A stretch of 64,000 bases of DNA, from contig JANQOX010000019.1 in NCBI GenBank assembly GCA_028285625.1, forward strand, positions 80,538 to 144,537, given 5' to 3'. Every line of letters begins with the position of its first letter. Positions within the stretch are counted from its first letter, which is position 1. Below are positions 28,737 to 38,041 of this stretch, one piece after another. Source of the DNA: Myxococcota bacterium (GTDB taxonomy: Bacteria > Myxococcota_A > UBA9160 > UBA6930). A program made the translations under genes and the position numbers. The notes beneath the pieces were generated by a model. That model was not told the DNA's origin, did no database searches, and worked only from the letters and a program-made list of their open reading frames with translations.

Positions 28737-29420
28737 CTAGTGCAGCGGTGCGCGGTCTCCCGTGTCGCCGGTGACGCCGCCGCAGGCGCGCAGCTGCTCG
28801 CCCAGCGCTTCGGCTCGCACGCGTCGGCGCTCACGCTTGCCGTCGGTGTCGCACAGGCGGTCGAGCACCTCGCGACCCCAGGCGATGTGGCGCTGGGTCT
28901 TGCGCACGATGTCGTCGAGGATCTCGATGGTGGGCGCGTCGCAGATGGTGTCCGTCTCGCGCATGTGGCGTTCGTAGACCAGCACCAGGTGCGGCTTCAG
29001 CACGTCGATGAGACCCGCGAGCTTCTCGATCGTCTGGTCCGGGCGCTCGGGGTCGGCGATGGCCTGGATGAATCCGGCGAAGCCTTCGTTCGGCGATTCG
29101 GACGAGTTGACCGCCTTGCGCCCGCAGCGAAGCTCGGGCAGCCGCTTGCCGAGCTCGTCGGCCGCCTTGGCGTCCTCCCAGATCAGCTTGCCGAGACCCG
29201 TCTTGACCGGCACCTCGGGCACCGTGGCGAGCCAACCGCCCATGGTGAGCATCATCCACTCCTGGGCATAGCGGAAGTTCCGCACGCGGCGGGCGGTCGC
29301 CTCGACGTCGTAGCGCCCATGCAGCTCGCGCAGGTCGGCCGGGATGTCGAAGGCCGAGTAGGGGTCGAAGGTGGTCTTCTCTTCGGGGCCATAGCCCGGA
29401 TACATGCGGCCTTCGCTCAT
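28737..29420 (-). CDS. Hypothetical protein, degenerate ferritin-like helical fold
   Basis: GGWLATVPE..K..LGK..WEDAKAAD (ExxH His lost); ATGA overlap with upstream ferritin-like gene. Confidence 0.55.
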   Translation of the reverse strand: MSEGRMYPGYGPEEKTTFDPYSAFDIPADLRELHGRYDVEATARRVRNFRYAQEWMMLTMGGWLATVPEVPVKTGLGKLIWEDAKAADELGKRLPELRCGRKAVNSSESPNEGFAGFIQAIADPERPDQTIEKLAGLIDVLKPHLVLVYERHMRETDTICDAPTIEILDDIVRKTQRHIAWGREVLDRLCDTDGKRERRRVRAEALGEQLRACGGVTGDTGDRAPLH

Positions 29421-30367
29421 CGGGTGGCCTCCTGCTCGCGACGCGCGAGATGGCGCTCACGAAGAATGCGCGCGGCTTCGGAGAGGGTCTCCCGCGAGGG
29501 GCCCTCGCCCGAGACCTGGGTCAATTCCTGCAGCTCTTCTTCGGTGAAGCCCGCTTCGACGCGGTCGTCCCAGGCGATCGGGATGGCCGCATCCTCGCGG
29601 TCTGAACGCGCCCCCCCGAAGCTGAACTGCTTGTCCACCTCGCGGCGGAAGTCCTGCGCGGCCTTGTAGCGGTCGGGATCGTCCTTGGTGAAGGCCTTCA
29701 CCCAGTCGCTGCCGAACCGGACGTGCGTGAGTTCGTCGGCGAGCACGTAGTCCACCGCCTGCGTCATCACCTGGTCCTCGCTGGCTTCGCCGTAGCGGAT
29801 CATGTCGCGAAAGACGTCACAGGCGAGGCCTTCGAGGCCGCGGTTCACGCCGGCCACGCGCAGGGCCGGATCGTCGGCACAGGCGCACTCGAACAGGAAG
29901 GTGCTCTCGGGGAACATCCCCACCTCGCCGCCCGTGTGCTCGAGCAGCTTCTCGAAGATCTGCACGTGCCGCGCCTCGTCCCAGCACTGCCGGGCCATGT
30001 TCATCTTGAACTCCCACGGCGCATCGGGAAAGTCCCAGAGCGAACGGCCCGCGCCCTCGAGCGCCTGGAGCTCGCCCACGAAGATGCCGTGCATGCGCAG
30101 CTTGAGGCGGGTCACCGCCGCCGGGTCGTTGGGCCGGAGGGGTTCGTTCAGCGTGACCAGGGCGAAGGCCGGACCGTAGGCCTCGAACAGGGGCTCGGCC
30201 GCCGTGCCCTTCACCTGGGCCTCGATGGCCGGCGCGAACTTCTCGAACGCGTCGACGACCTGGTCCACGTCGTCCGGCAACGCCGCGAGGATCGTCGCCT
30301 GGGCGTTGTCCTGGCGCACGAAGCGGCTGTCTCGTGCGAGTTCGTGGGGCTCGATGAATCGCTTCAC
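29417..30367 (-). CDS. Ferritin-like diiron protein (DUF455-like)
   Basis: ELQALE, WDEARH, LEGLACD, DELTHV form a complete diiron ligand set; GGAGG RBS. Confidence 0.7.
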   Translation of the reverse strand: MKRFIEPHELARDSRFVRQDNAQATILAALPDDVDQVVDAFEKFAPAIEAQVKGTAAEPLFEAYGPAFALVTLNEPLRPNDPAAVTRLKLRMHGIFVGELQALEGAGRSLWDFPDAPWEFKMNMARQCWDEARHVQIFEKLLEHTGGEVGMFPESTFLFECACADDPALRVAGVNRGLEGLACDVFRDMIRYGEASEDQVMTQAVDYVLADELTHVRFGSDWVKAFTKDDPDRYKAAQDFRREVDKQFSFGGARSDREDAAIPIAWDDRVEAGFTEEELQELTQVSGEGPSRETLSEAARILRERHLARREQEATR

Positions 30368-30504
30368 GGTGGGTCCTCCATGGGTCGGGGGCGCGACGAT
30401 CGATGGTACGCGGGCTCCCGCCCCCGTGCACGAGCCCCGGCGGTCGACTCGGTGCTACAGAAGATGGCCCCGGCCCGCCCGGGCCACCCCAGCCAGGAGC
30501 CGAC

Positions 30505-30918
30505 GTGCCCAGCCGACCCGTTCCCCAGCCCACGCCCGAGACCCAGCACTTCTGGGACGGCACCCGCGCGGGCGAGCTGCGCCTGCAGCGCTGCCTCGAC
30601 TGCGGGGCGATCTACTTCCCGCCGCGCCCGTTCTGTCCCGCCTGCTCCTCGGGCGACGTGGAGGTCTTCGCCGCCAGCGGCCGCGCGCGCCTGGCGAGCT
30701 TCGTGATCAACCACCGCCCGGCGCCGGGCTTCGAGGCGCCCTACGTGATCGCCCTGGTGGACCTGGAAGAGGGCCCGCGCATGATGACCAACCTGGTGGG
30801 CGTCGACCCCGTCCCCGAGGCGCTGTCGGTCGACATGCCGCTCGAGGTCGTGTTCGAAGCCGTGTCGGACGAGATCCAGCTGCCGCTGTTCCGCCCGGCC
30901 GGGGGGAGCGCGTCGTGA
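30505..30918 (+). CDS. Zn-ribbon/OB-fold (DUF35, ChsH2-like) protein
   Basis: FWDG, CLDC...CPAC, VDLEEGPRM, LPLFRP; coupled to thiolase. Confidence 0.85.
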   Translation: MPSRPVPQPTPETQHFWDGTRAGELRLQRCLDCGAIYFPPRPFCPACSSGDVEVFAASGRARLASFVINHRPAPGFEAPYVIALVDLEEGPRMMTNLVGVDPVPEALSVDMPLEVVFEAVSDEIQLPLFRPAGGSAS

Positions 30919-32054
30919 ACGAAGCCATCGCGATCGTGGGCGCCGCCGAGACCACCGACCTCGGCAAGATCCCGCACATGTCCCAGATCCAGCTGCACGC
31001 CGACGCCGCCCGCAACACCCTCGCCGACTGCGGCCTCGGGCCGGGCGACATCGACGGCATCGCCACGGCCGGCGAGTCGCCCGTGAACCTCGCGCACTAC
31101 CTGGGCATCACACCCGCCTGGGTCGACGGCACCTCGGTGGGCGGCTGTTCGTTCATGGTCCACGTGCGCCACGCCGCCGCGGCGCTGCGCGCAGGCCTTT
31201 GCAAGACCGTGCTCATCACCCATGGCGAGAGCGGCCGCTCGCGCGTGGGGCGCGGGGGCTTCGCCCGACCGGCCGCCTCGCTGTCGGGCCAGTTCGAGAT
31301 GCCCTTCGGGCCCGTGGGACCGCCCACGCTCTTCACCCTTCCGGTGATGCGGTACCTGCACACCTACGGCGTCACCGAGGAGCAGCTGGCCCAGGTCGCC
31401 GTGGTGCAGCGCGACTGGGCCGGGCGCAACCCGCGGGCCTACATGCGCGACCCCATCAGCGTCGACGACGTGCTGGGCTCCACCATGATCGCGTGGCCGT
31501 TTCGCAAGCTGATGTGCTGCCTGGTGACCGACGGGGGCGGCGCCCTCGTACTCACCACGGCCGACCGCGCGCGCGACCTGCGGCGCCCGCCGGTCTGGGT
31601 GCTCGGAACCGGCGAGGCGGTCGAGACCCCCATGGTGAGCCAGATGGAAGACCTCACCTCTTCGAAGGCCTTCCGGCTGGCGAGCGCCCAGGCCTTCGGC
31701 GAGGCCGGCATCGGCCCGCGCGACGTCGACCACCTGATGATCTACGACGCCTTCGCCCACCTGCCGCTCTACGGCCTCGAAGACCTGGGCTTCGTGGGGC
31801 GCGGCGAGGCGGCCGCATTCATCGGCGACGGCCACACCGCCCCCGGCGGCCGGCTGCCGCTCAACACCAACGGAGGCGGCCTCAGCTACGCGCACTCGGG
31901 CATGTACGGCATGTACGCGCTGCAGGAGAGCGTGCGCCAGATGCGCGGCGTGGCGCCCGCCCAGATCGAGGGCGCGAACCTCTCGGTGGCCCACGGCGTG
32001 GGCGGCATGTTCGCCGCGAGCGGCACGGTGGTGATGTCGCGCGAGCTTCCGTAG
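30915..32054 (+). CDS. Thiolase-superfamily protein (SCP-x/Ltp2-like)
   Basis: VGGCS, CCLVTDGGGA, IYDAFAH, NTNGGGLSYAH. Confidence 0.85.
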   Translation: MNEAIAIVGAAETTDLGKIPHMSQIQLHADAARNTLADCGLGPGDIDGIATAGESPVNLAHYLGITPAWVDGTSVGGCSFMVHVRHAAAALRAGLCKTVLITHGESGRSRVGRGGFARPAASLSGQFEMPFGPVGPPTLFTLPVMRYLHTYGVTEEQLAQVAVVQRDWAGRNPRAYMRDPISVDDVLGSTMIAWPFRKLMCCLVTDGGGALVLTTADRARDLRRPPVWVLGTGEAVETPMVSQMEDLTSSKAFRLASAQAFGEAGIGPRDVDHLMIYDAFAHLPLYGLEDLGFVGRGEAAAFIGDGHTAPGGRLPLNTNGGGLSYAHSGMYGMYALQESVRQMRGVAPAQIEGANLSVAHGVGGMFAASGTVVMSRELP

Positions 32055-32091
32055 CTCGCGCGAGCTTCCGGAACGACACGCAGGAGCACCC

Positions 32092-32949
32092 ATGGGCAGA
32101 CTCGACGGCAAGGTGGCGTGGGTGACCGGGGCGAGCCGAGGCATCGGCGAGGCCATCGCGCGCGGCTTCGCCGCCGAAGGGGCGCGGGTGGCCTGCAGCG
32201 CGCGCACCCTGCGCGAGGGCGACCACAAGCTCTTTGCGGGCTCGCTCGAAGCCACCGTCGACGCCATCCGAGCGGACGGGGGCCAGGCCGCGGCGATCCC
32301 CTGCGACGTCTCCCGCTACGAGTTCTGCGAGCAGGCGCTGGCCGCCGTGCACGCCGAACTCGGGCCGGTCGACGTACTCGTGAACAACGCCGCGCTCACC
32401 TACTTCGTGCCCGTCGCGAAATACGAGATCACCAAGTGGCACCGCTCGCTCGACGTCAACTTCAACGCGCCGTTCTACCTGTCGAAGCTGGCGCTGGGCG
32501 ACATGATCCCGGGTGGCGGCGGCGCCATCGTCAACATCTCGAGCGGCGCCGCCATCGGCCCCGGGCGCGGCCCCTACGACGAGGCGGCCCAGCGCCTGCT
32601 GCGCGGCAGCGTGCTCTACGGCGCCGAGAAGGCCGCACTCGAACGCTTCACCCAGGGTCTCGCCGCCGAGGTGCAGGCCCATGGCGTCTCGGTCACCTGT
32701 GTGAGCCCGAGCAAGGTCGTGCCGACGCCCGGCACCGTGCACCACCGGTTGGTGGATGGCATGGACGATCCCCGCGGCGAGCCGCCCACGGTGATGGCGC
32801 AGGCGGCGCTCCTGCTGGCGAGCGAACCCCTCGAGCGGGTCACCGGTCGCGTGACCTACAGCCAGGAGATCCTGCGCGAGTTCGGCTGGATCGAAGACGC
32901 CGGCGGGCTCGGCGTCGACCGCCCCGGCTCGGGATACGCCCAGACCTAG
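32092..32949 (+). CDS. Short-chain dehydrogenase/reductase
   Basis: TGASRGIG, NNAA, YGAEK (YxxxK). Confidence 0.9.
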   Translation: MGRLDGKVAWVTGASRGIGEAIARGFAAEGARVACSARTLREGDHKLFAGSLEATVDAIRADGGQAAAIPCDVSRYEFCEQALAAVHAELGPVDVLVNNAALTYFVPVAKYEITKWHRSLDVNFNAPFYLSKLALGDMIPGGGGAIVNISSGAAIGPGRGPYDEAAQRLLRGSVLYGAEKAALERFTQGLAAEVQAHGVSVTCVSPSKVVPTPGTVHHRLVDGMDDPRGEPPTVMAQAALLLASEPLERVTGRVTYSQEILREFGWIEDAGGLGVDRPGSGYAQT

Positions 32950-32971: not shown

Positions 32972-34465
32972 CTAGGAGGCCGGCGCGGCAGCCAGCGCGG
33001 GCGGTTGCCCGTTGACCTCGCCGCCCGGGGTGCGCCCCCAGATCTCCGGCGGCGGACCGGCCGGCAGCCCCGCGCGCTCGCGCAGCGCCGCGAACGAGTC
33101 GGCCAGCGCCGCCGTGAAGTCCTCGACGTCGGGCACGAGGTCGTAGTCGGCGTTGATGCCCCAGTGGAGCGTGCCGTCGTAGGACAGCAGCGCGATCCCG
33201 AGGCCCATGTAGTCCACCAGCGGCACGTGCGGGAAGGTCTCGAGGAGCCGCGCGCCCAGCAGATACATGGGTACCTGCGGGCCCGGCACGTTCGTGCACA
33301 CCGCATTCGCCGGGAGCAGGCGTGTGGCGTTGCGCGCACCCAGCGCCATCAACGTGGCGGGGGTCCACTCGGCGGCCTGGGTCAGGACCTCGGCACCGAT
33401 CGCCGATCGCGACTCCTTGAGCTCCTGGGTGGCCGCTTGGATGCGGTCGAGCTGCTGCGCCGGGTCCGACTCGTCGAGGGGCAGCGGCACCATCCATGCG
33501 GATACGCGGTTGCCCAACGCACCGGACTCGTCGGCGGCTCGAACGCTCACCGGTGTCATGACGCGGAAGTCGAGGTCGTCGACGCGCACGCCGCGGTCGG
33601 TGAGGAAGCGCCGGAACGCACCGGTCACCACGGTGAGCACCACGTCGTTGAGGCTTCCGCCGAGAACCTGGCGCACCTCCTTCACGGCCTTGATCTCGGT
33701 CTTGCACCAGTCCCAGCGGCGGTGCGGCCCGATCGGCTCGTTGATGGGGGTATCCGAGGCCGAACGCAGGTTGGTGAGCGTCTCGCCCACCGCGCGCGCC
33801 CGTACGCTGAGCTCGCGGCGAACGTCGGTCGCCTCGCGCGCGAAGTGCGAGAAGTCGCGCACCGCCCGCAGCGGCAGGGTGATGCGACGGGTGATCTCGT
33901 CCCGCAGCAGCTCGAGCGGCGTGGGCTGCGGGCGCGGCACATAGGCCGGCGGGTCGGGCAGCGTGACCTCGGACTCGGTGGACAGCAGGATCTGGAGCAG
34001 GTCCACCCCCGAAACGCCGTCGATCATGCAGTGGTGCACCTTCGAGATCAGCGCGAAGCGGTTGCCCGAGAGGCCCTCCACCACCCAGCTCTCCCAGAGC
34101 GGGCGATCGCGGTCGAGGTGCTGCTGCATGATGCGCGCGGCGAGTTTCTTGAGCTGGGCGTCGCTGCCCGGCTTGGGCAAGGCCGTATGGCGCAGGTGGT
34201 AGTCGATCTCGAAGTCGTGGTCGTCGACCCAGACCGGCGTTCCCTCGACGGGCGTCCAGCGCAGCACCTGTCGGTAGCGGGGGATGCGATGCAGCAGCCG
34301 CTCGTGCGCGTCACGGATGGCCTCGAAATCGATGCCTCCATCGTCGCGCCGCAGCGGCCCGGCCTCGAACACCTGGGTCGAGCCCACGTGGGTGTACTGG
34401 TTGGGCTTCTCGAGGATCAGGAACGAGTTGTCGAGGGCGGTCAGTCGGTCGTAGTGGGCGGGCAT
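32972..34465 (-). CDS. Wax ester synthase/diacylglycerol acyltransferase
   Basis: LTALDNSFL, LDRDRPLWE, HHCMIDG (HHxxxDG), TNVPGP. Confidence 0.92.
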   Translation of the reverse strand: MPAHYDRLTALDNSFLILEKPNQYTHVGSTQVFEAGPLRRDDGGIDFEAIRDAHERLLHRIPRYRQVLRWTPVEGTPVWVDDHDFEIDYHLRHTALPKPGSDAQLKKLAARIMQQHLDRDRPLWESWVVEGLSGNRFALISKVHHCMIDGVSGVDLLQILLSTESEVTLPDPPAYVPRPQPTPLELLRDEITRRITLPLRAVRDFSHFAREATDVRRELSVRARAVGETLTNLRSASDTPINEPIGPHRRWDWCKTEIKAVKEVRQVLGGSLNDVVLTVVTGAFRRFLTDRGVRVDDLDFRVMTPVSVRAADESGALGNRVSAWMVPLPLDESDPAQQLDRIQAATQELKESRSAIGAEVLTQAAEWTPATLMALGARNATRLLPANAVCTNVPGPQVPMYLLGARLLETFPHVPLVDYMGLGIALLSYDGTLHWGINADYDLVPDVEDFTAALADSFAALRERAGLPAGPPPEIWGRTPGGEVNGQPPALAAAPAS

Positions 34466-34470
34466 TGGGG

Positions 34471-35118
34471 TCACTCCGGGATTCGCAGCTCGCCGAGCGA
34501 GGCGGCGAGCACGGTTCGTCCGATCTTGCGCAGGCGCTCTTCGTCGAGGCCGCGCAGCTTCATCTGTACGTGCATGAGCGCACTTCCGATGTGGAAGCGC
34601 GCGGCGAGGTCGGCATCGACGTCCGCCGCGATGGTGCCTTCGGCCTGGCCGCGCTCGATCGTGCGCCGGTGGTTCGCGATCAGCTGGTCGTTGAAGGCCT
34701 CGTAGCGTGGCCAGATGCCGTTGCGATAGGCCGTGCTCCAGTCGAGCCACACGCGCGTGTGGTCGGGATGGCTCTCGAGCGAGTCCAGGAAGGCGCTGCC
34801 GTGGCGGCGGATCACCTCTCGGGCCGGCTGCTCCGGGGTGTGGATGCGCTCGGCCATGCCCAGATAGAAGCGCTCGACCTCATCGAGGACGGCGTCCACC
34901 AGGGCTTCGCGGTTCGGGAAGTAGAGGAAGGCCGTCGAGACGGCGACGCCGGCTTCTTCGGCCACCTCGGCATGGGCGGCACGGCCGAGGCCCCGCCGCG
35001 CGAACACCCGAAGCGCGCACGCGAGAAGCTGGGCGCGCCGCTCGGCGGGGGGCAGCCGCTTCGAACGCGTGGTCCGCCGCGGAGGCGCTCCGCCCTGTTC
35101 CGGAGCCCCGGCGCTCAC
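34471..35118 (-). CDS. TetR-family regulator, Vibrio LuxR/HapR/SmcR-like
   Basis: ALRVFARRGLGRAAHAEVAEEAGVAVSTAFLYFPNREALVDAVL and VWLDWSTAYRNGIWP; GTG start overlaps upstream stop (GTGA). Confidence 0.85.
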   Translation of the reverse strand: MSAGAPEQGGAPPRRTTRSKRLPPAERRAQLLACALRVFARRGLGRAAHAEVAEEAGVAVSTAFLYFPNREALVDAVLDEVERFYLGMAERIHTPEQPAREVIRRHGSAFLDSLESHPDHTRVWLDWSTAYRNGIWPRYEAFNDQLIANHRRTIERGQAEGTIAADVDADLAARFHIGSALMHVQMKLRGLDEERLRKIGRTVLAASLGELRIPE

Positions 35119-36515
35119 AGGACGGCGAGAACCTCGTCGACGCTCTTCACCATGCACTCCCGCAGCAGCGCCGGGTCGGAGACCGCCGCCGGGTCGGTCG
35201 CGATGCCGATGCCGACGGTGCCGTCATAGCTGAAGGCCGTCACGTTGATCGCAGAACCGGCCAGGGGGCCGAAGCCGAAGATCTGCTCGACCTTGGCACC
35301 CGAGAGGTAGACCTCGAACTGCGGGCCGGGCACGTTGCTGGTGACGAAGTCGATGGCCTTGAGCATGCCGCCGGCGACGCCGACCCGGGTGTTGCCGGGC
35401 AGCTGGTTCAGCAGCGCCGAGACGGGCTCGAGTAGCCCGTTGGCGGGCTCCTTGCGCTGGGCCCGCACCCGCGCACCGATCTCGCGCATGCGCTCGGCGG
35501 GGTCGGCGATGTCCATGGGCACCACGAAGCGGGCGGGTGCGAACTGGTTGCCCGCGTGGTTCGCCCGTTCGCCGTCACGCATGTTGATGGGCATCGTCAT
35601 GCGCAGGCCGTCGATCTCGTGGCCCAGGTGCTCGTGGTAGCGGCGCAGCCCCCCGGCGATCGCAGCGACGAAGGCGTCGTTCACCGTCCCACCTACGGAC
35701 TTGCCGGCCCGCTTGAGCTCGGCCAGCGGCACCTCGATCTGCTCGAAGTGCACGCCCAGCGAGCGCTCTCGCATGACGGGCGACATGGGCTCGGTCACGG
35801 GCTCGAGAAAGCGCCCGACCGACGCGGCGGTATCGGCCGCTCGCCGCACCGCGGCGGCGGGGTCGCGCAGCGTCGTGGCGGCCTCGTCGACCAGGCTTCG
35901 CAGCAGCGCACCCGCGGTGTCCCGCGCCTGCCGCGCACGGTGCGCAATGGCCTCGCGGGTCTGCTCCACCGGCGAAAGCACCGGGCCCTCGGGCACCGGG
36001 ATGGGCCGCGGGGTCCGGTTCGGGTCGGGCACGCGCCAGGTCTCGACCATGCTGCTGGTCATGCTGACCATGCCCACACCGTCGGACACGGCGTGGTGCA
36101 GCTTCATGAGGAAGGCGCAGCGGCCGCCCTCGAGGCCCGTCAGCAGGTAGAGCTCCCAGAGCGGGCGGTCCTTGTCGAAGGCCTGGACGGCGATCGGCTC
36201 GAGCAGGTCGAGCACGTCGCGAAGCGTTCCCTCGCCCGGGACGCGCATGCGGCGCACGTGGTAGGCGACGTCGAAGTGCGGGTCGAACTCCCAGCGCGGG
36301 GGCGCGATGCCGAAGGGGTCTTCGACCACGCGCTGGCGCAGCCGGGGGATCTTGCGGGTCGCCCGCTCGATCTTCGCATCGAAGCGCTCCGGGTCGGGCT
36401 CACCATCGAGCACCCAGACGCCGGAGATGGTGCTGCGCAGCAGCGGGTCGCGCTCGACGGCCCAGGTGAGAGCGTCGCTGTCGCTCATCCAGTCTTCGAA
36501 TACCGTCTCGTCCAT
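35115..36515 (-). CDS. Wax ester synthase/diacylglycerol acyltransferase
   Basis: FDKDRPLWE, HHAVSDG, GTVNDAF, SNVPGP. Confidence 0.92.
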   Translation of the reverse strand: MDETVFEDWMSDSDALTWAVERDPLLRSTISGVWVLDGEPDPERFDAKIERATRKIPRLRQRVVEDPFGIAPPRWEFDPHFDVAYHVRRMRVPGEGTLRDVLDLLEPIAVQAFDKDRPLWELYLLTGLEGGRCAFLMKLHHAVSDGVGMVSMTSSMVETWRVPDPNRTPRPIPVPEGPVLSPVEQTREAIAHRARQARDTAGALLRSLVDEAATTLRDPAAAVRRAADTAASVGRFLEPVTEPMSPVMRERSLGVHFEQIEVPLAELKRAGKSVGGTVNDAFVAAIAGGLRRYHEHLGHEIDGLRMTMPINMRDGERANHAGNQFAPARFVVPMDIADPAERMREIGARVRAQRKEPANGLLEPVSALLNQLPGNTRVGVAGGMLKAIDFVTSNVPGPQFEVYLSGAKVEQIFGFGPLAGSAINVTAFSYDGTVGIGIATDPAAVSDPALLRECMVKSVDEVLAVL

Positions 36516-36585
36516 GGGGGTCTCCTTGGAAGGGTTGGATCCCCCTGGGGGAATCATCTTTTGGTCAGTAGGTCGAGGGGTCGGC

Positions 36586-36646
36586 TACTGATGAATCTCT
36601 CATCAACAGATGAGGTTGTACCTCACTAATGATGGATCTGTCAACA
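36586..36646 (-). promoter_or_regulatory. Promoter with two 20-bp operator boxes for the WS/DGAT-TetR-WS/DGAT operon
   Basis: Minus strand TTGACA (36644-36639)-18-TACAAC; boxes TACTGATGAATCTCTCATCA (36586-36605) and TAATGATGGATCTGTCAACA (36627-36646). Confidence 0.65.
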
Positions 36647-36709
36647 AGGGCGCGTGCAACGAATCCGGACCGCTCGCCCGGGCCCGCCCGTGGGCTATAC
36701 CGCCGTCCG

Positions 36710-38041
36710 ATGCGCAGCAGCAGGATCCGGCGTGGGTCGACGGCCGCCCGAGGCGTCGCGGCATTCGTGGGCTGCCTCTGGCTGGCCGCGGCCTGCGAAC
36801 CCGGGCGAGAAGCAGCGGCCCCGCCCCCCGCCAACCCCCCGGCAGCCGTCGCCGACCGCGACCCGGCCGAGGGCTCGCCTGCAGAGCTGACCGAGCACCA
36901 ACGCGAACTGCTCGAGGCGCTCGGCTACGTCTATTTCTCGCAGGACGAGCCGAGCGACGCGAGCGGCGTGGTCGTGCACGATCGCGCCAGGGCCCACCCC
37001 GGCGTGAACCTCCACTCCATCCGGTTCCTGTGTCGTGCGGAGCTTCGCGACATGGACGGCGCGCTGCTGCACGCCTGGGAGCAGAAGCCGTGCCGCTACT
37101 GGTCCACGGCCGAACTCCTGCCCGGGGGCGACCTGCTGGTCACGGGCATGGATCCGACGAGCGCGGCCGACGACTACGACCCCGCCGCCATGTTCCTGAT
37201 GCGCCTCGCCCCCGACGGCAGCGTGCGCTTCAAGCGCGCGATCACCGCCCACCACGACGCGAGTCTCACGCCCTCGGGCGAGATCTTGACGATCGCCCTG
37301 CACAACCGGCCGGCGCGGCGGCTCTTTCCGCACGCCCTGGTCGAAGACGAGCGACTCACCCTGCTCTCGGGGGATGGCGAGGAGATCGTCGCCGAGACTT
37401 CGGTGCTCGACGCCATCCTGCGGCCGGGCTCGACGTTCCCGATCCGCAAGATCCGCCCCCGCAAGATCGCAGGCGAGCTCGTGAGCCAGATGTTCCACGC
37501 CAACGCCATCGAGTGGATCGACCGGCCGGATCTCGCGGGCACGCACCCGGTCTACGCCGCCGGCAACGTGCTGACCTGCCTGCGCAACCAGGACCGCATC
37601 GTGATCCTTTCCTACGAGACGGGCGAGATCTTGTGGTCGTGGGGCCTTCGCAAGCTGGAGCTGCCCCACCACCCGACCCTGCTCGACAATGGCAACGTGC
37701 TGCTCTTCGACAACGGCACCGGCCGCAAGTGGTCGCGCGTGCTCGAGGTGGACCCGCGCACCGACGAGATCGTCTGGTCCTACCAGGCCGATCCGCCCGA
37801 GTCGTTCTTCTCGGCGAACCGCGGCTCCAACGAGCGGCTCCCGAACGGCAACACCTTGATCGCCGACTCGGACAGCGGCCGCGCCTTCGAGGTGACGCCC
37901 GAGGGCGAGACGGTGTGGGAGTTCTTCGCTCCGCAGGTCGACGCCGAGGGCCGCCGCGCCACCATCGAACGCATCAAGCGCTACGACCCCGCCGACCTTC
38001 CGTGGCTGGCCGTACCCGGCGCGGCGACCGCGACCGACTAG
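36710..38041 (+). CDS. Arylsulfotransferase (ASST)-like beta-propeller lipoprotein
   Basis: Lipobox LAAA-C; AHHDA, FHANAI, LFDNG, RLPNGNTLI. Confidence 0.7.
   Translation: MRSSRIRRGSTAARGVAAFVGCLWLAAACEPGREAAAPPPANPPAAVADRDPAEGSPAELTEHQRELLEALGYVYFSQDEPSDASGVVVHDRARAHPGVNLHSIRFLCRAELRDMDGALLHAWEQKPCRYWSTAELLPGGDLLVTGMDPTSAADDYDPAAMFLMRLAPDGSVRFKRAITAHHDASLTPSGEILTIALHNRPARRLFPHALVEDERLTLLSGDGEEIVAETSVLDAILRPGSTFPIRKIRPRKIAGELVSQMFHANAIEWIDRPDLAGTHPVYAAGNVLTCLRNQDRIVILSYETGEILWSWGLRKLELPHHPTLLDNGNVLLFDNGTGRKWSRVLEVDPRTDEIVWSYQADPPESFFSANRGSNERLPNGNTLIADSDSGRAFEVTPEGETVWEFFAPQVDAEGRRATIERIKRYDPADLPWLAVPGAATATD

Follow-up and report, generated by a model that had tools for sequence, protein, structure and literature searches.

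A distant LuxR/HapR-like TetR protein encoded between two wax-ester synthase genes of a Myxococcota bacterium, and its putative operator boxes

The stretch of DNA analysed here (the window; 64,000 nucleotides from the Myxococcota assembly GCA_028285625.1, contig JANQOX010000019.1) has a G+C content of approximately 70% and is part of contig C22 in a genome of 5.67 Mb that consists of 26 contigs and is 91.8% complete. It contains three consecutive minus-strand genes, arranged head to tail, which encode a wax-ester synthase/diacylglycerol acyltransferase (WS/DGAT; here WS1), a TetR-type regulator similar to the LuxR/HapR/SmcR proteins of Vibrio, and a second WS/DGAT (WS2; Table 1). The sequence AAGGAG at 36527-36522 precedes the ATG of WS1, the GTG start of the TetR gene and the TGA stop of WS1 have the tetranucleotide GTGA in common, and a gap of 5 bp separates the TetR stop from the WS2 start. 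WS1 contains the domains PF03007 (1.1e-48) and PF06974 (5.6e-27) and scores 327.1 bits with TIGR02946, whereas the values for WS2 are 1.9e-64 for PF03007, which is again accompanied by PF06974, and 414.5 bits for TIGR02946 (NCBIfam cut-off, 309.95). The catalytic HHxxxDG motif reads HHAVSDG in WS1 and HHCMIDG in WS2, and both proteins are members of the WS/DGAT family on account of these features. Known bacterial WS/DGATs include AtfA of Acinetobacter baylyi and Tgs1 of mycobacteria. A first-pass annotation, made from the letters of the sequence, had described a WS/DGAT-TetR-WS/DGAT operon with exactly this overlap and gap. The open reading frames confirm the layout, the domain searches agree with its calls for both flanking genes, and the three TetR peptides that it quoted (RLPPAERRAQLLACALRVFARRGLGRAAHAEVAE, YFPNREALVDAVL, and VWLDWSTAYRNGIWP) are present in the translation. 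Upstream of WS1, the divergent gene for an arylsulfotransferase-like lipoprotein has its likely start at 36710, as read from a lipoprotein-type signal peptide in the open reading frame. The WS1 leader also contains a G+C-rich palindrome, TCCCCCTGGGGGA, which is followed by a T-run on the plus strand (36540-36552). Located between box 2 and the ribosome-binding site, it resembles a terminator on the strand opposite WS1.

Table 1. Genes and putative regulatory elements of the WS1-TetR-WS2 locus (window positions)
Feature	Position	Strand	Remarks
WS2 (second WS/DGAT)	32972..34465	-	497 aa; ATG at 34465
TetR regulator, LuxR/HapR-like	34471..35118	-	215 aa; GTG start at 35118
WS1 (WS/DGAT, operon gene 1)	35115..36515	-	466 aa; ATG at 36515; stop TGA at 35117-35115
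Divergent intergenic region	36516..36709	.	Contains both boxes and the presumed WS1 promoter
Box 2 (operator-like)	36586..36605	read on -	TGATGA-GAGATTCA-TCAGTA; 20 bp
Box 1 (operator-like)	36627..36646	read on -	TGTTGA-CAGATCCA-TCATTA; 20 bp; TTGACA within the left half
Arylsulfotransferase-like lipoprotein, divergent from WS1	36710..38041	+	PF14269

The regulator belongs to the TetR family, with an N-terminal helix-turn-helix domain (PF00440, 41.8 bits) and an all-helical ligand and dimerisation domain. In phmmer searches its 18 best PDB sequences are all LuxR, HapR, SmcR, or OpaR proteins (E from 1.4e-32 to 5.5e-22). After a gap of 24 orders in E-value, KstR2 follows as the first other TetR protein (E 1.1e-8). 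The alignment to 8zf3, which Foldseek titles name as a Photobacterium protein together with 8ZF2, spans residues 17-199 of 215, and across PDB chains the alignments reach up to residues 17-207. The best NCBIfam model is quorum_TF_HapR (NF040929; 95.5 bits), followed by MtrR (44.8 bits); the models for FasR and FadR score 40 and 32 bits, respectively. The equivalog cut-off of NF040929, 350 bits, is clearly missed. HMMER searches run exhaustively against 1.84 billion cluster representatives retrieved 59 proteins at E <=1e-30, 286 at E <=1e-10, and 7705 at E <=0.001. Among 93 of the 150 listed representatives, namely those of roughly full length, only P0262 passes NF040929 (398.6 bits), and two others reach 218.7 and 165.6 bits. 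P0262 clusters with proteins named LuxR/HapR/OpaR by NCBI from Vibrio tritonius and V. porteresiae, and the TetR of the window is 36% identical to it over 170 amino acids (BLASTP, E 5e-31).

A quick IQ-TREE analysis of 73 rows comprised 29 locus-derived homologs, 36 representatives picked at intervals down the list of 150, three Vibrio-like sequences and, as outgroup, five other TetRs of the same genome (a sixth candidate, L008, had no tblastn match). All 68 HapR-like rows are united in this tree (SH-aLRT 96). The Vibrio-type rows form one subclade with Aeromonas and Agarivorans, and the TetR of the window lies apart from them, in a starred subclade that comprises 27 rows (98). It groups with the Vibrio proteins apart from other TetRs and carries the WxxWS...R....WP block; W127, R132, and W136 are invariant across 49 aligned homologs. 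The AlphaFold2 model (AF2; pLDDT 93.6) has LuxR/HapR/SmcR proteins at Foldseek ranks 1-43, with 28-34% identity in structural alignments to the Vibrio family. VIA-align also places this family first, by a margin of just 1-3 Z units. Structure is thus a weak discriminator here, and the case for the family rests on sequence. We conclude that the TetR is a true but distant member of the wider family that contains Vibrio LuxR, HapR, and SmcR. Because it scores below the NF040929 cut-off and falls into a separate subclade, it is a cousin rather than an orthologue of the Vibrio regulators. The first-pass annotation had compared the TetR with Vibrio sequences and had suggested structure prediction against HapR and SmcR as a check. 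The Vibrio strings that it gave agree with PDB chains as printed by HMMER, the similarity does extend into the ligand domain, as the alignment to 8zf3 through residue 199 demonstrates, and the structural search led to this family and not to unrelated TetR subfamilies. Its phrase "distant member" holds for the wider family, on the grounds of sequence, fold, arginine arm, and box (see below), but not in the sense of an equivalog or orthologue. An unannotated HapR-like protein of Aeromonas caviae (L059; NZ_AP026896.1:4060475-4061014; 40.6% identity) is encoded on a 4.9-Mb record, probably a chromosome, which PLSDB lists as a "plasmid" with 18 annotated features; this protein groups with the Agarivorans and Vibrio rows and retains Asn at the position of Asn55. 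Among 14 control genomes, NF040929 also matches Methanosarcina acetivorans below the cut-off, which hints that the wider clade reaches the archaea.

Much of the DNA-binding hardware of the Vibrio proteins is retained. According to PMC8034623, Arg9 and Arg11 of the N-terminal "LuxR-arm" enter the minor groove, a trait shared, in the view of its authors, by no TetR-family proteins other than the LuxR proteins; bases are contacted by S49, A51, F54, and N55, and the backbone by R17, R32, R36, S49, T52, Y56, P58, T59, and R60. Based on HMMER alignments and an alignment of 29 homologs, Arg9 and Arg11 correspond to R18 and R21 in the TetR of the window, which thus possesses the arm at the sequence level. 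R17, R32, R36, and T52 are kept as R27, R42, R46, and T62, and F54, Y56, P58, and R60 as F64, Y66, P68, and R70. The changed contacts are S49, A51, T59, and N55, replaced by A59, S61, N69, and L65, respectively. The position of Asn55 is occupied by L, V, or F in most environmental rows and by N in the Aeromonas row. In SmcR, the exchange N55I confines binding to near-palindromic "repressed" sites and abolishes it at activated ones, as described in PMC8191795.

A script for inverted repeats detected one or two AT-rich dyads with a 6-8-6 frame upstream of WS1 in all seven loci where a WS1 orthologue and the TetR stand together (see below). Examples are TATTGA-CAGAGTTA-TCAATA in L040 and TAATGA-TATTTCTA-TCATTA in L038. 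The window has two of them; box 2 is set 41 bp further downstream than box 1 and precedes the WS1 start codon by 71 bp. With a matrix built solely from 10 boxes that belong to the other six WS1-TetR loci, box 1 (29.4 bits) and box 2 (25.0 bits) rank first and second among the approximately 5.67 million positions of the genome. The third-best position reaches 17.6 bits, and the only two positions above 18 bits are both at the WS1 operon. Applied to the 21 loci with a TetR homolog and no WS1 partner, this matrix detects a box scoring 19.8 bits or more in 17, 22-255 bp before the homolog or, in L015, before the preceding co-directional gene. It misses L049 (15.9 bits), L054, L055 (11.5 bits), and L056 (17.5 bits), and the Aeromonas locus L059 has weak boxes only, of up to 17.4 bits. 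The boxes also resemble Vibrio operators. If the SmcR consensus given in PMC2859563, TTATTGATWWRWTWNTNAATAA, is used as the query, the highest-scoring match coincides with this upstream box for 26 of the 27 loci (13-18 of 20 specified positions; 15-18 in the boxes of the relatives), and the two boxes of the window, with 14 of 20 positions each, are the tied best matches in the 64-kb window. By comparison with LuxR/HapR operators of 20-22 bp, which read TTATTGATWWRWTWNTNAATAA or YTATTGA...AATAR, the two putative boxes share frame and core. The critical LuxR operator positions G5, A6, A8, T15, and A17, as listed in PMC2628434, fit the same core, and so does the HapR motif "YTATTGA...AATAR" (PMC2677876). 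The presence of two boxes that resemble the Vibrio operator, are unique in the genome, and are conserved at this locus is a new observation. A second HapR-like TetR of the same genome (L055; G000:C6:73049-73597; 43-44% identical) has a Coq4-like gene and genes for outer-membrane proteins of the DUF1329/DUF1302 type as neighbours. The dyad that precedes it, TAGTGAAGATTTCTTCAATA (11.5 bits), is related but different, and cross-talk between the two paralogues is therefore improbable.

Conservation of the gene order was surveyed in 28 loci with a HapR-like TetR, to be compared with the 286 cluster representatives at E <=1e-10. These loci were the window, seven unique loci from a contig scan (nine were found, two of them duplicates of other fetched loci), and 20 regions from relatives. 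In seven of the 28, including the window, a WS1 orthologue of 52-63% identity is encoded directly upstream of the TetR on the same strand. These seven loci represent five genera in two families; the WS1 stop and TetR start overlap by 4 nt in four of them and by 1 nt in one, and gaps of 18 and 36 nt occur in the other two. In a careful tree of 29 rows, the seven regulators and two that are linked to acyl-CoA dehydrogenases form one clade (92/97), which fits a single origin of the WS1-TetR arrangement and one later relocation. Of 401 genomes sampled within the phylum, 14 yielded the TetR, each of them belonging to the same class. WS1 orthologues, defined by at least 50% identity, occur in 27 of 61 related genomes, and in all five of those loci that also carry the TetR a box accompanies it. 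The downstream side of the operon behaves differently. WS2 follows the TetR in none of the six other WS1-TetR loci, is 28% identical to WS1 but 47-51% identical to four other paralogues in the genome, and thus represents a different WS/DGAT subgroup that is not conserved at this locus. The genome encodes nine WS/DGAT paralogues, among which WS1 and WS2 alone lie behind boxes. As regards the embedding between two WS/DGAT genes emphasised in the first-pass annotation, the WS1-TetR pair recurs and the WS2 side is peculiar to this genome. The survey of non-Vibrio neighbourhoods that it had recommended shows the linkage to WS/DGAT genes to be kept in a quarter of the loci, within one clade. In the locus from the same genus (L037), a DUF455 gene and a hydrolase gene follow the TetR where the window has WS2. 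Compared with L037, the window additionally has, downstream, WS2 and genes for a short-chain dehydrogenase/reductase, a ChsH2-like OB-fold protein, and a thiolase (29417-32949, beyond WS2) and, upstream, the arylsulfotransferase-like lipoprotein gene (36710-38041). Both loci contain genes for an ADP-forming acyl-CoA synthetase, a Na/alanine symporter, and a DUF455 protein. Three of the nine paralogues are encoded in a row elsewhere in the genome (G000:C12:160121-165923). Open frames of 710 and 719 amino acids in genomes G050 and G024, which had suggested a WS/DGAT-TetR fusion, were rejected as such, since tblastn places the two parts in different frames that meet at a GTGA junction.

Promoter predictions for orthologous loci bear on the sign of regulation. 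In L040, a predicted promoter TTGACA-17-AATACT has its -35 element inside box 1, and box 2 begins at the last base of the -10 element; the predicted layout in L039 is the same. The single box of L038 begins 11 nt after a CATAAT -10 element. For comparison, 50 shuffles of each of these three sequences yielded a mean of 0.1 sites. The overlap of -35 and -10 elements with boxes in L038-L040 would correspond to promoter occlusion, the classical mode of TetR repressors. A candidate promoter in the window, TTGACA-N18-TACAAC, was read by eye and discarded, because it fails the rule of the promoter tool. According to PMC8034623, PMC8191795, and PMC2677876, it is the sites with dyad symmetry that are repressed in Vibrio.

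Computation shows how the TetR is related, how the operon is built, that the boxes are unique and conserved, and that TetR and box occur together, whereas binding of the TetR to the boxes, the sign of its regulation, and the kind of its ligand are inferred. The TetR is probably a dedicated, autoregulated local repressor of WS1-TetR-WS2 that acts through the two operator boxes and is released by a lipid-type ligand. Most likely, a TetR dimer would bind each of the two 20-bp dyads and occlude the WS1 promoter, thereby repressing both WS/DGAT genes and its own. A hydrophobic metabolite might then enter the C-terminal pocket and release the TetR from the DNA, so that the synthesis of neutral lipids (wax esters or triacylglycerols, TAG) would be switched on when acyl precursors accumulate. 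Our best guess for this effector is a long-chain acyl-CoA, a fatty acid, a fatty alcohol, or a fatty aldehyde. The proposed sign is based on the dyad symmetry of the boxes, their overlap with predicted promoters in orthologous loci, and Leu at the position of Asn55. The proposed nature of the ligand is based on the neighbours of the relatives, which are mostly enzymes for lipids or other hydrophobic substrates, and on the fatty-acid regulators in the Foldseek ranking.

Several observations speak against this model or parts of it. Between window positions 32800 and 36800, the promoter tool predicts not a single sigma-70-like site, and the occlusion geometry is hence borrowed from the orthologous loci; moreover, Vibrio LuxR proteins are also able to activate transcription. 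Both TetR and boxes are present in five of the 27 WS1-orthologue loci and absent from 22, among which no box of at least 18 bits was found (the upstream flank is too short in three). Control of neutral-lipid storage by the TetR, as postulated in the first-pass annotation, is backed by the fact that the only two strong boxes of the genome front WS1, but most WS1 orthologues do without this regulator. The 14 of 20 matches of the window boxes to the Vibrio consensus from PMC2859563 are not exceptional either, as 23 positions in the genome score at least 14, and their significance therefore rests on the clade-derived matrix. With seven of 18 residues identical, the pocket as delimited in the same paper is no better conserved than the whole protein (36%), and it varies even among the WS-linked members, where W124 is replaced by L or A in four of seven. 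Unlike Foldseek, VIA-align places unrelated TetRs first outside the family. Finally, the diverse neighbours of the relatives imply that ligands may differ between subclades.

The ligand is where the strongest competing explanation applies. The SmcR pocket is formed by the 18 residues listed in PMC2859563. Seven of them are identical in the TetR (W114, S118, N133, Q137, A163, F166, and H167), and seven others are changed conservatively (F75Y, M100F, F115L, F129Y, N136D, V140A, and C170S). The pocket keeps its amphipathic character, which does not by itself name the ligand. Outside the family, fatty-acid regulators account for three of the five top-ranked Foldseek matches, among them B. subtilis FadR, which holds stearoyl-CoA in 3whc (TMq 0.74), and a putative fatty-acid regulator of C. 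perfringens (6azh; 0.70); KstR2 (0.65) ranks beside them. By analogy, the TetR may bind an acyl compound, as the first-pass annotation had suggested for the pocket of this family. It is conceivable, albeit rather unlikely, that the local repressor is instead gated by an effector that is not an acyl compound, such as an aromatic, xenobiotic, or redox signal. This would suit those relatives that adjoin genes for flavin adenine dinucleotide (FAD)-dependent monooxygenases, cytochromes P450, a soluble di-iron monooxygenase, or a KshA-like Rieske oxygenase, and also the variable polar half of the pocket and the top VIA-align matches outside the family, which include TetRs solved with choline or benzamidine. 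However, the enzyme regulated in the WS-linked clade uses acyl-CoA together with an alcohol or diacylglycerol, and the sister rows of this clade are tied to acyl-CoA dehydrogenases.

With respect to the sign, the same protein and boxes could also serve activation, or both activation and repression, as is the case for Vibrio LuxR at luxCDABE. LuxR/HapR proteins exert both activities (PMC2628434; PMC8191795), activated Vibrio promoters typically carry tandem sites, the median site number being nearly double for activated genes (PMC8034623), and no promoter was predicted in the window. Nevertheless, the boxes have the dyad symmetry of the repressed type, predicted -35 and -10 elements overlap boxes in L038, L039, and L040, and the TetR has Leu in place of the Asn55 that is needed for asymmetric "activated" sites, all of which makes activation an improbable role compared with local repression. 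We attach a similarly low probability to a regulator that works without any ligand, where negative feedback would buffer the output of the operon and the pocket would be purely structural. The location of the regulator gene inside the very operon that it would repress is compatible with this idea, and according to PMC12977469 a native ligand is known for no LuxR/HapR protein after decades of study. On the other hand, the model of the TetR retains a full nine-helix ligand domain with a pLDDT above 90, the pocket of SmcR is real in that it binds small molecules and contains unexplained density (PMC12977469; PMC2859563), and characterised local TetRs are nearly all ligand-gated (PMC2628434). That the linkage is incidental, the true targets lying elsewhere or the divergent arylsulfotransferase-like gene alone being controlled, is very improbable: box 1 also precedes the likely start of that gene by 64 bp and the TetR is missing from 22 of 27 WS1-orthologue loci, but the genome has no other position above 18 bits, the same-genus locus lacks the divergent gene while keeping WS1, TetR, and boxes, and TetR and box occur together in five of five TetR-bearing WS1 loci among the relatives searched.

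The genes next to the other homologs share a theme, oxidative or acyl-transfer chemistry on hydrophobic substrates, although it is not uniform. A divergently oriented ferritin-like di-iron protein with weak R2lox/AurF likeness is encoded in seven loci, a divergent luciferase-like monooxygenase in four of the four loci of the L009-L012 clade, and acyl-CoA dehydrogenases with a zinc-type reductase in three. Single loci feature P450s, a soluble di-iron monooxygenase with a CoA-transferase, an FAD monooxygenase co-transcribed upstream, and a KshA-like oxygenase; three loci have other or no clear partners. The luciferase-like monooxygenases (PF00296; L009:4-930, L010:2126-3385, L011:4-936, and L012:4888-5868) are found in sequences titled Methylomirabilota, "delta proteobacterium", and others, and near-consensus boxes of 30-38 bits lie between the TetR and luciferase-like genes. 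The best NCBIfam model for the L010 enzyme is LLM_2I7G (78 bits), and luciferase alpha scores 43 bits. An old link between LuxR and luciferase is only a thought. The ferritin-like proteins have approximately 400 amino acids and are encoded divergently from the TetR homolog in five loci (L016:4620-5861, L017:4677-5861, L044:4668-5894, L051:4699-5976, and L052:4687-5874), to which two AurF-like cases can be added (L043:1576-2637 and L050:3449-4582). They match no Pfam model at 1e-5 and "R2-like ligand-binding oxidase" weakly (30-37 bits). Those of L016 and L044 are 81% identical, and the TetRs of these loci are each about 50% identical to that of the window. R2lox proteins are purified together with a long-chain fatty acid. 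At a distance of 2 kb from its TetR homolog, L010 also encodes the reverse transcriptase/maturase of a group II intron, divided between two frames (L010:6376-8023).

In Vibrio, LuxR/HapR/SmcR proteins play a central part in group behaviour and in the control of virulence. PMC12977469, published in 2026, notes that no native ligand is known for them and that every "apo" crystal has density in the pocket. The locus described here and its relatives offer a comparative handle on this question and point to lipid-derived effectors. Cousins with the same type of operator and the same DNA-binding hardware are local regulators beside genes for WS/DGATs, acyl-CoA dehydrogenases, luciferase-like monooxygenases, and di-iron oxidases. 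We put forward, tentatively and as a speculation that may well prove wrong, that the Vibrio proteins represent a single branch of an ancient and widespread family whose members are local repressors, autoregulated and gated by ligands, of the metabolism of lipids and hydrophobic substrates. This family would extend at least to Myxococcota, Methylomirabilota, Binatia, and Gammaproteobacteria and would have preserved the arginine arm along with a single type of operator, TATTGATA-N4-TATCAATA. If so, the Vibrio proteins would have a fatty-acyl metabolite (an acyl-CoA, fatty acid, aldehyde, or alcohol) as their native ligand, and Asn at position 55 would be a derived change that loosened site recognition and turned a local repressor into a global activator and repressor. 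This suggests a route from local to global regulation via position 55 and the loss of strict dependence on a palindrome. The model of a local repressor also predicts that the boxes and the TetR form a simple, transferable switch for wax-ester and TAG synthesis.

The papers listed by literature searches on the LuxR/HapR family dealt with Vibrio and close kin only, which is not proof that nothing else has been published, and a search aimed at TetR-controlled WS/DGAT operons brought up none among its 15 listed matches. Compared with LuxR, HapR, SmcR, OpaR, and LitR of Vibrio, the TetR of the window has the same fold, the arginine arm, most DNA-contact residues, and an amphipathic pocket in common. 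Its putative operators have the same frame with a TTGA...TCA core, and in both cases sites precede the regulator's own gene, as described for the Vibrio luxR and hapR promoters in PMC2628434 and PMC2677876. In contrast to the hundreds of targets in Vibrio, the TetR has one predicted target region in its genome, and it is encoded inside a WS/DGAT operon of a high-GC genome, its named relatives being Myxococcota metagenome-assembled genomes. Judged by its sites and by Leu at residue 65, it departs from the picture of a global regulator with many degenerate sites, dual activity, and flexible recognition through Asn55. Production of the Vibrio regulators is governed by the Qrr sRNA/LuxO cascade of quorum sensing; Qrr RNA (RF00378) had no match in the genome, with its completeness of 91.8%, in a search that matched no control genome either. 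B. subtilis FadR/YsiA, M. tuberculosis FasR, and KstR2 are alike in the proposed mode of action, as local TetRs that are encoded next to lipid genes and released or modulated by an acyl-CoA, but their sequence similarity to the TetR is weak (KstR2, E 1e-8; FasR, 40 bits; FadR, 32 bits) and their operators differ. The classical repressors of the TetR/QacR type resemble the proposed system in autoregulation, a dyad operator over the promoter, and one or two targets (PMC2628434). Unlike these, however, the TetR of the window is co-transcribed downstream of its putative target instead of being divergently encoded, and its predicted operator is of the LuxR/HapR type.

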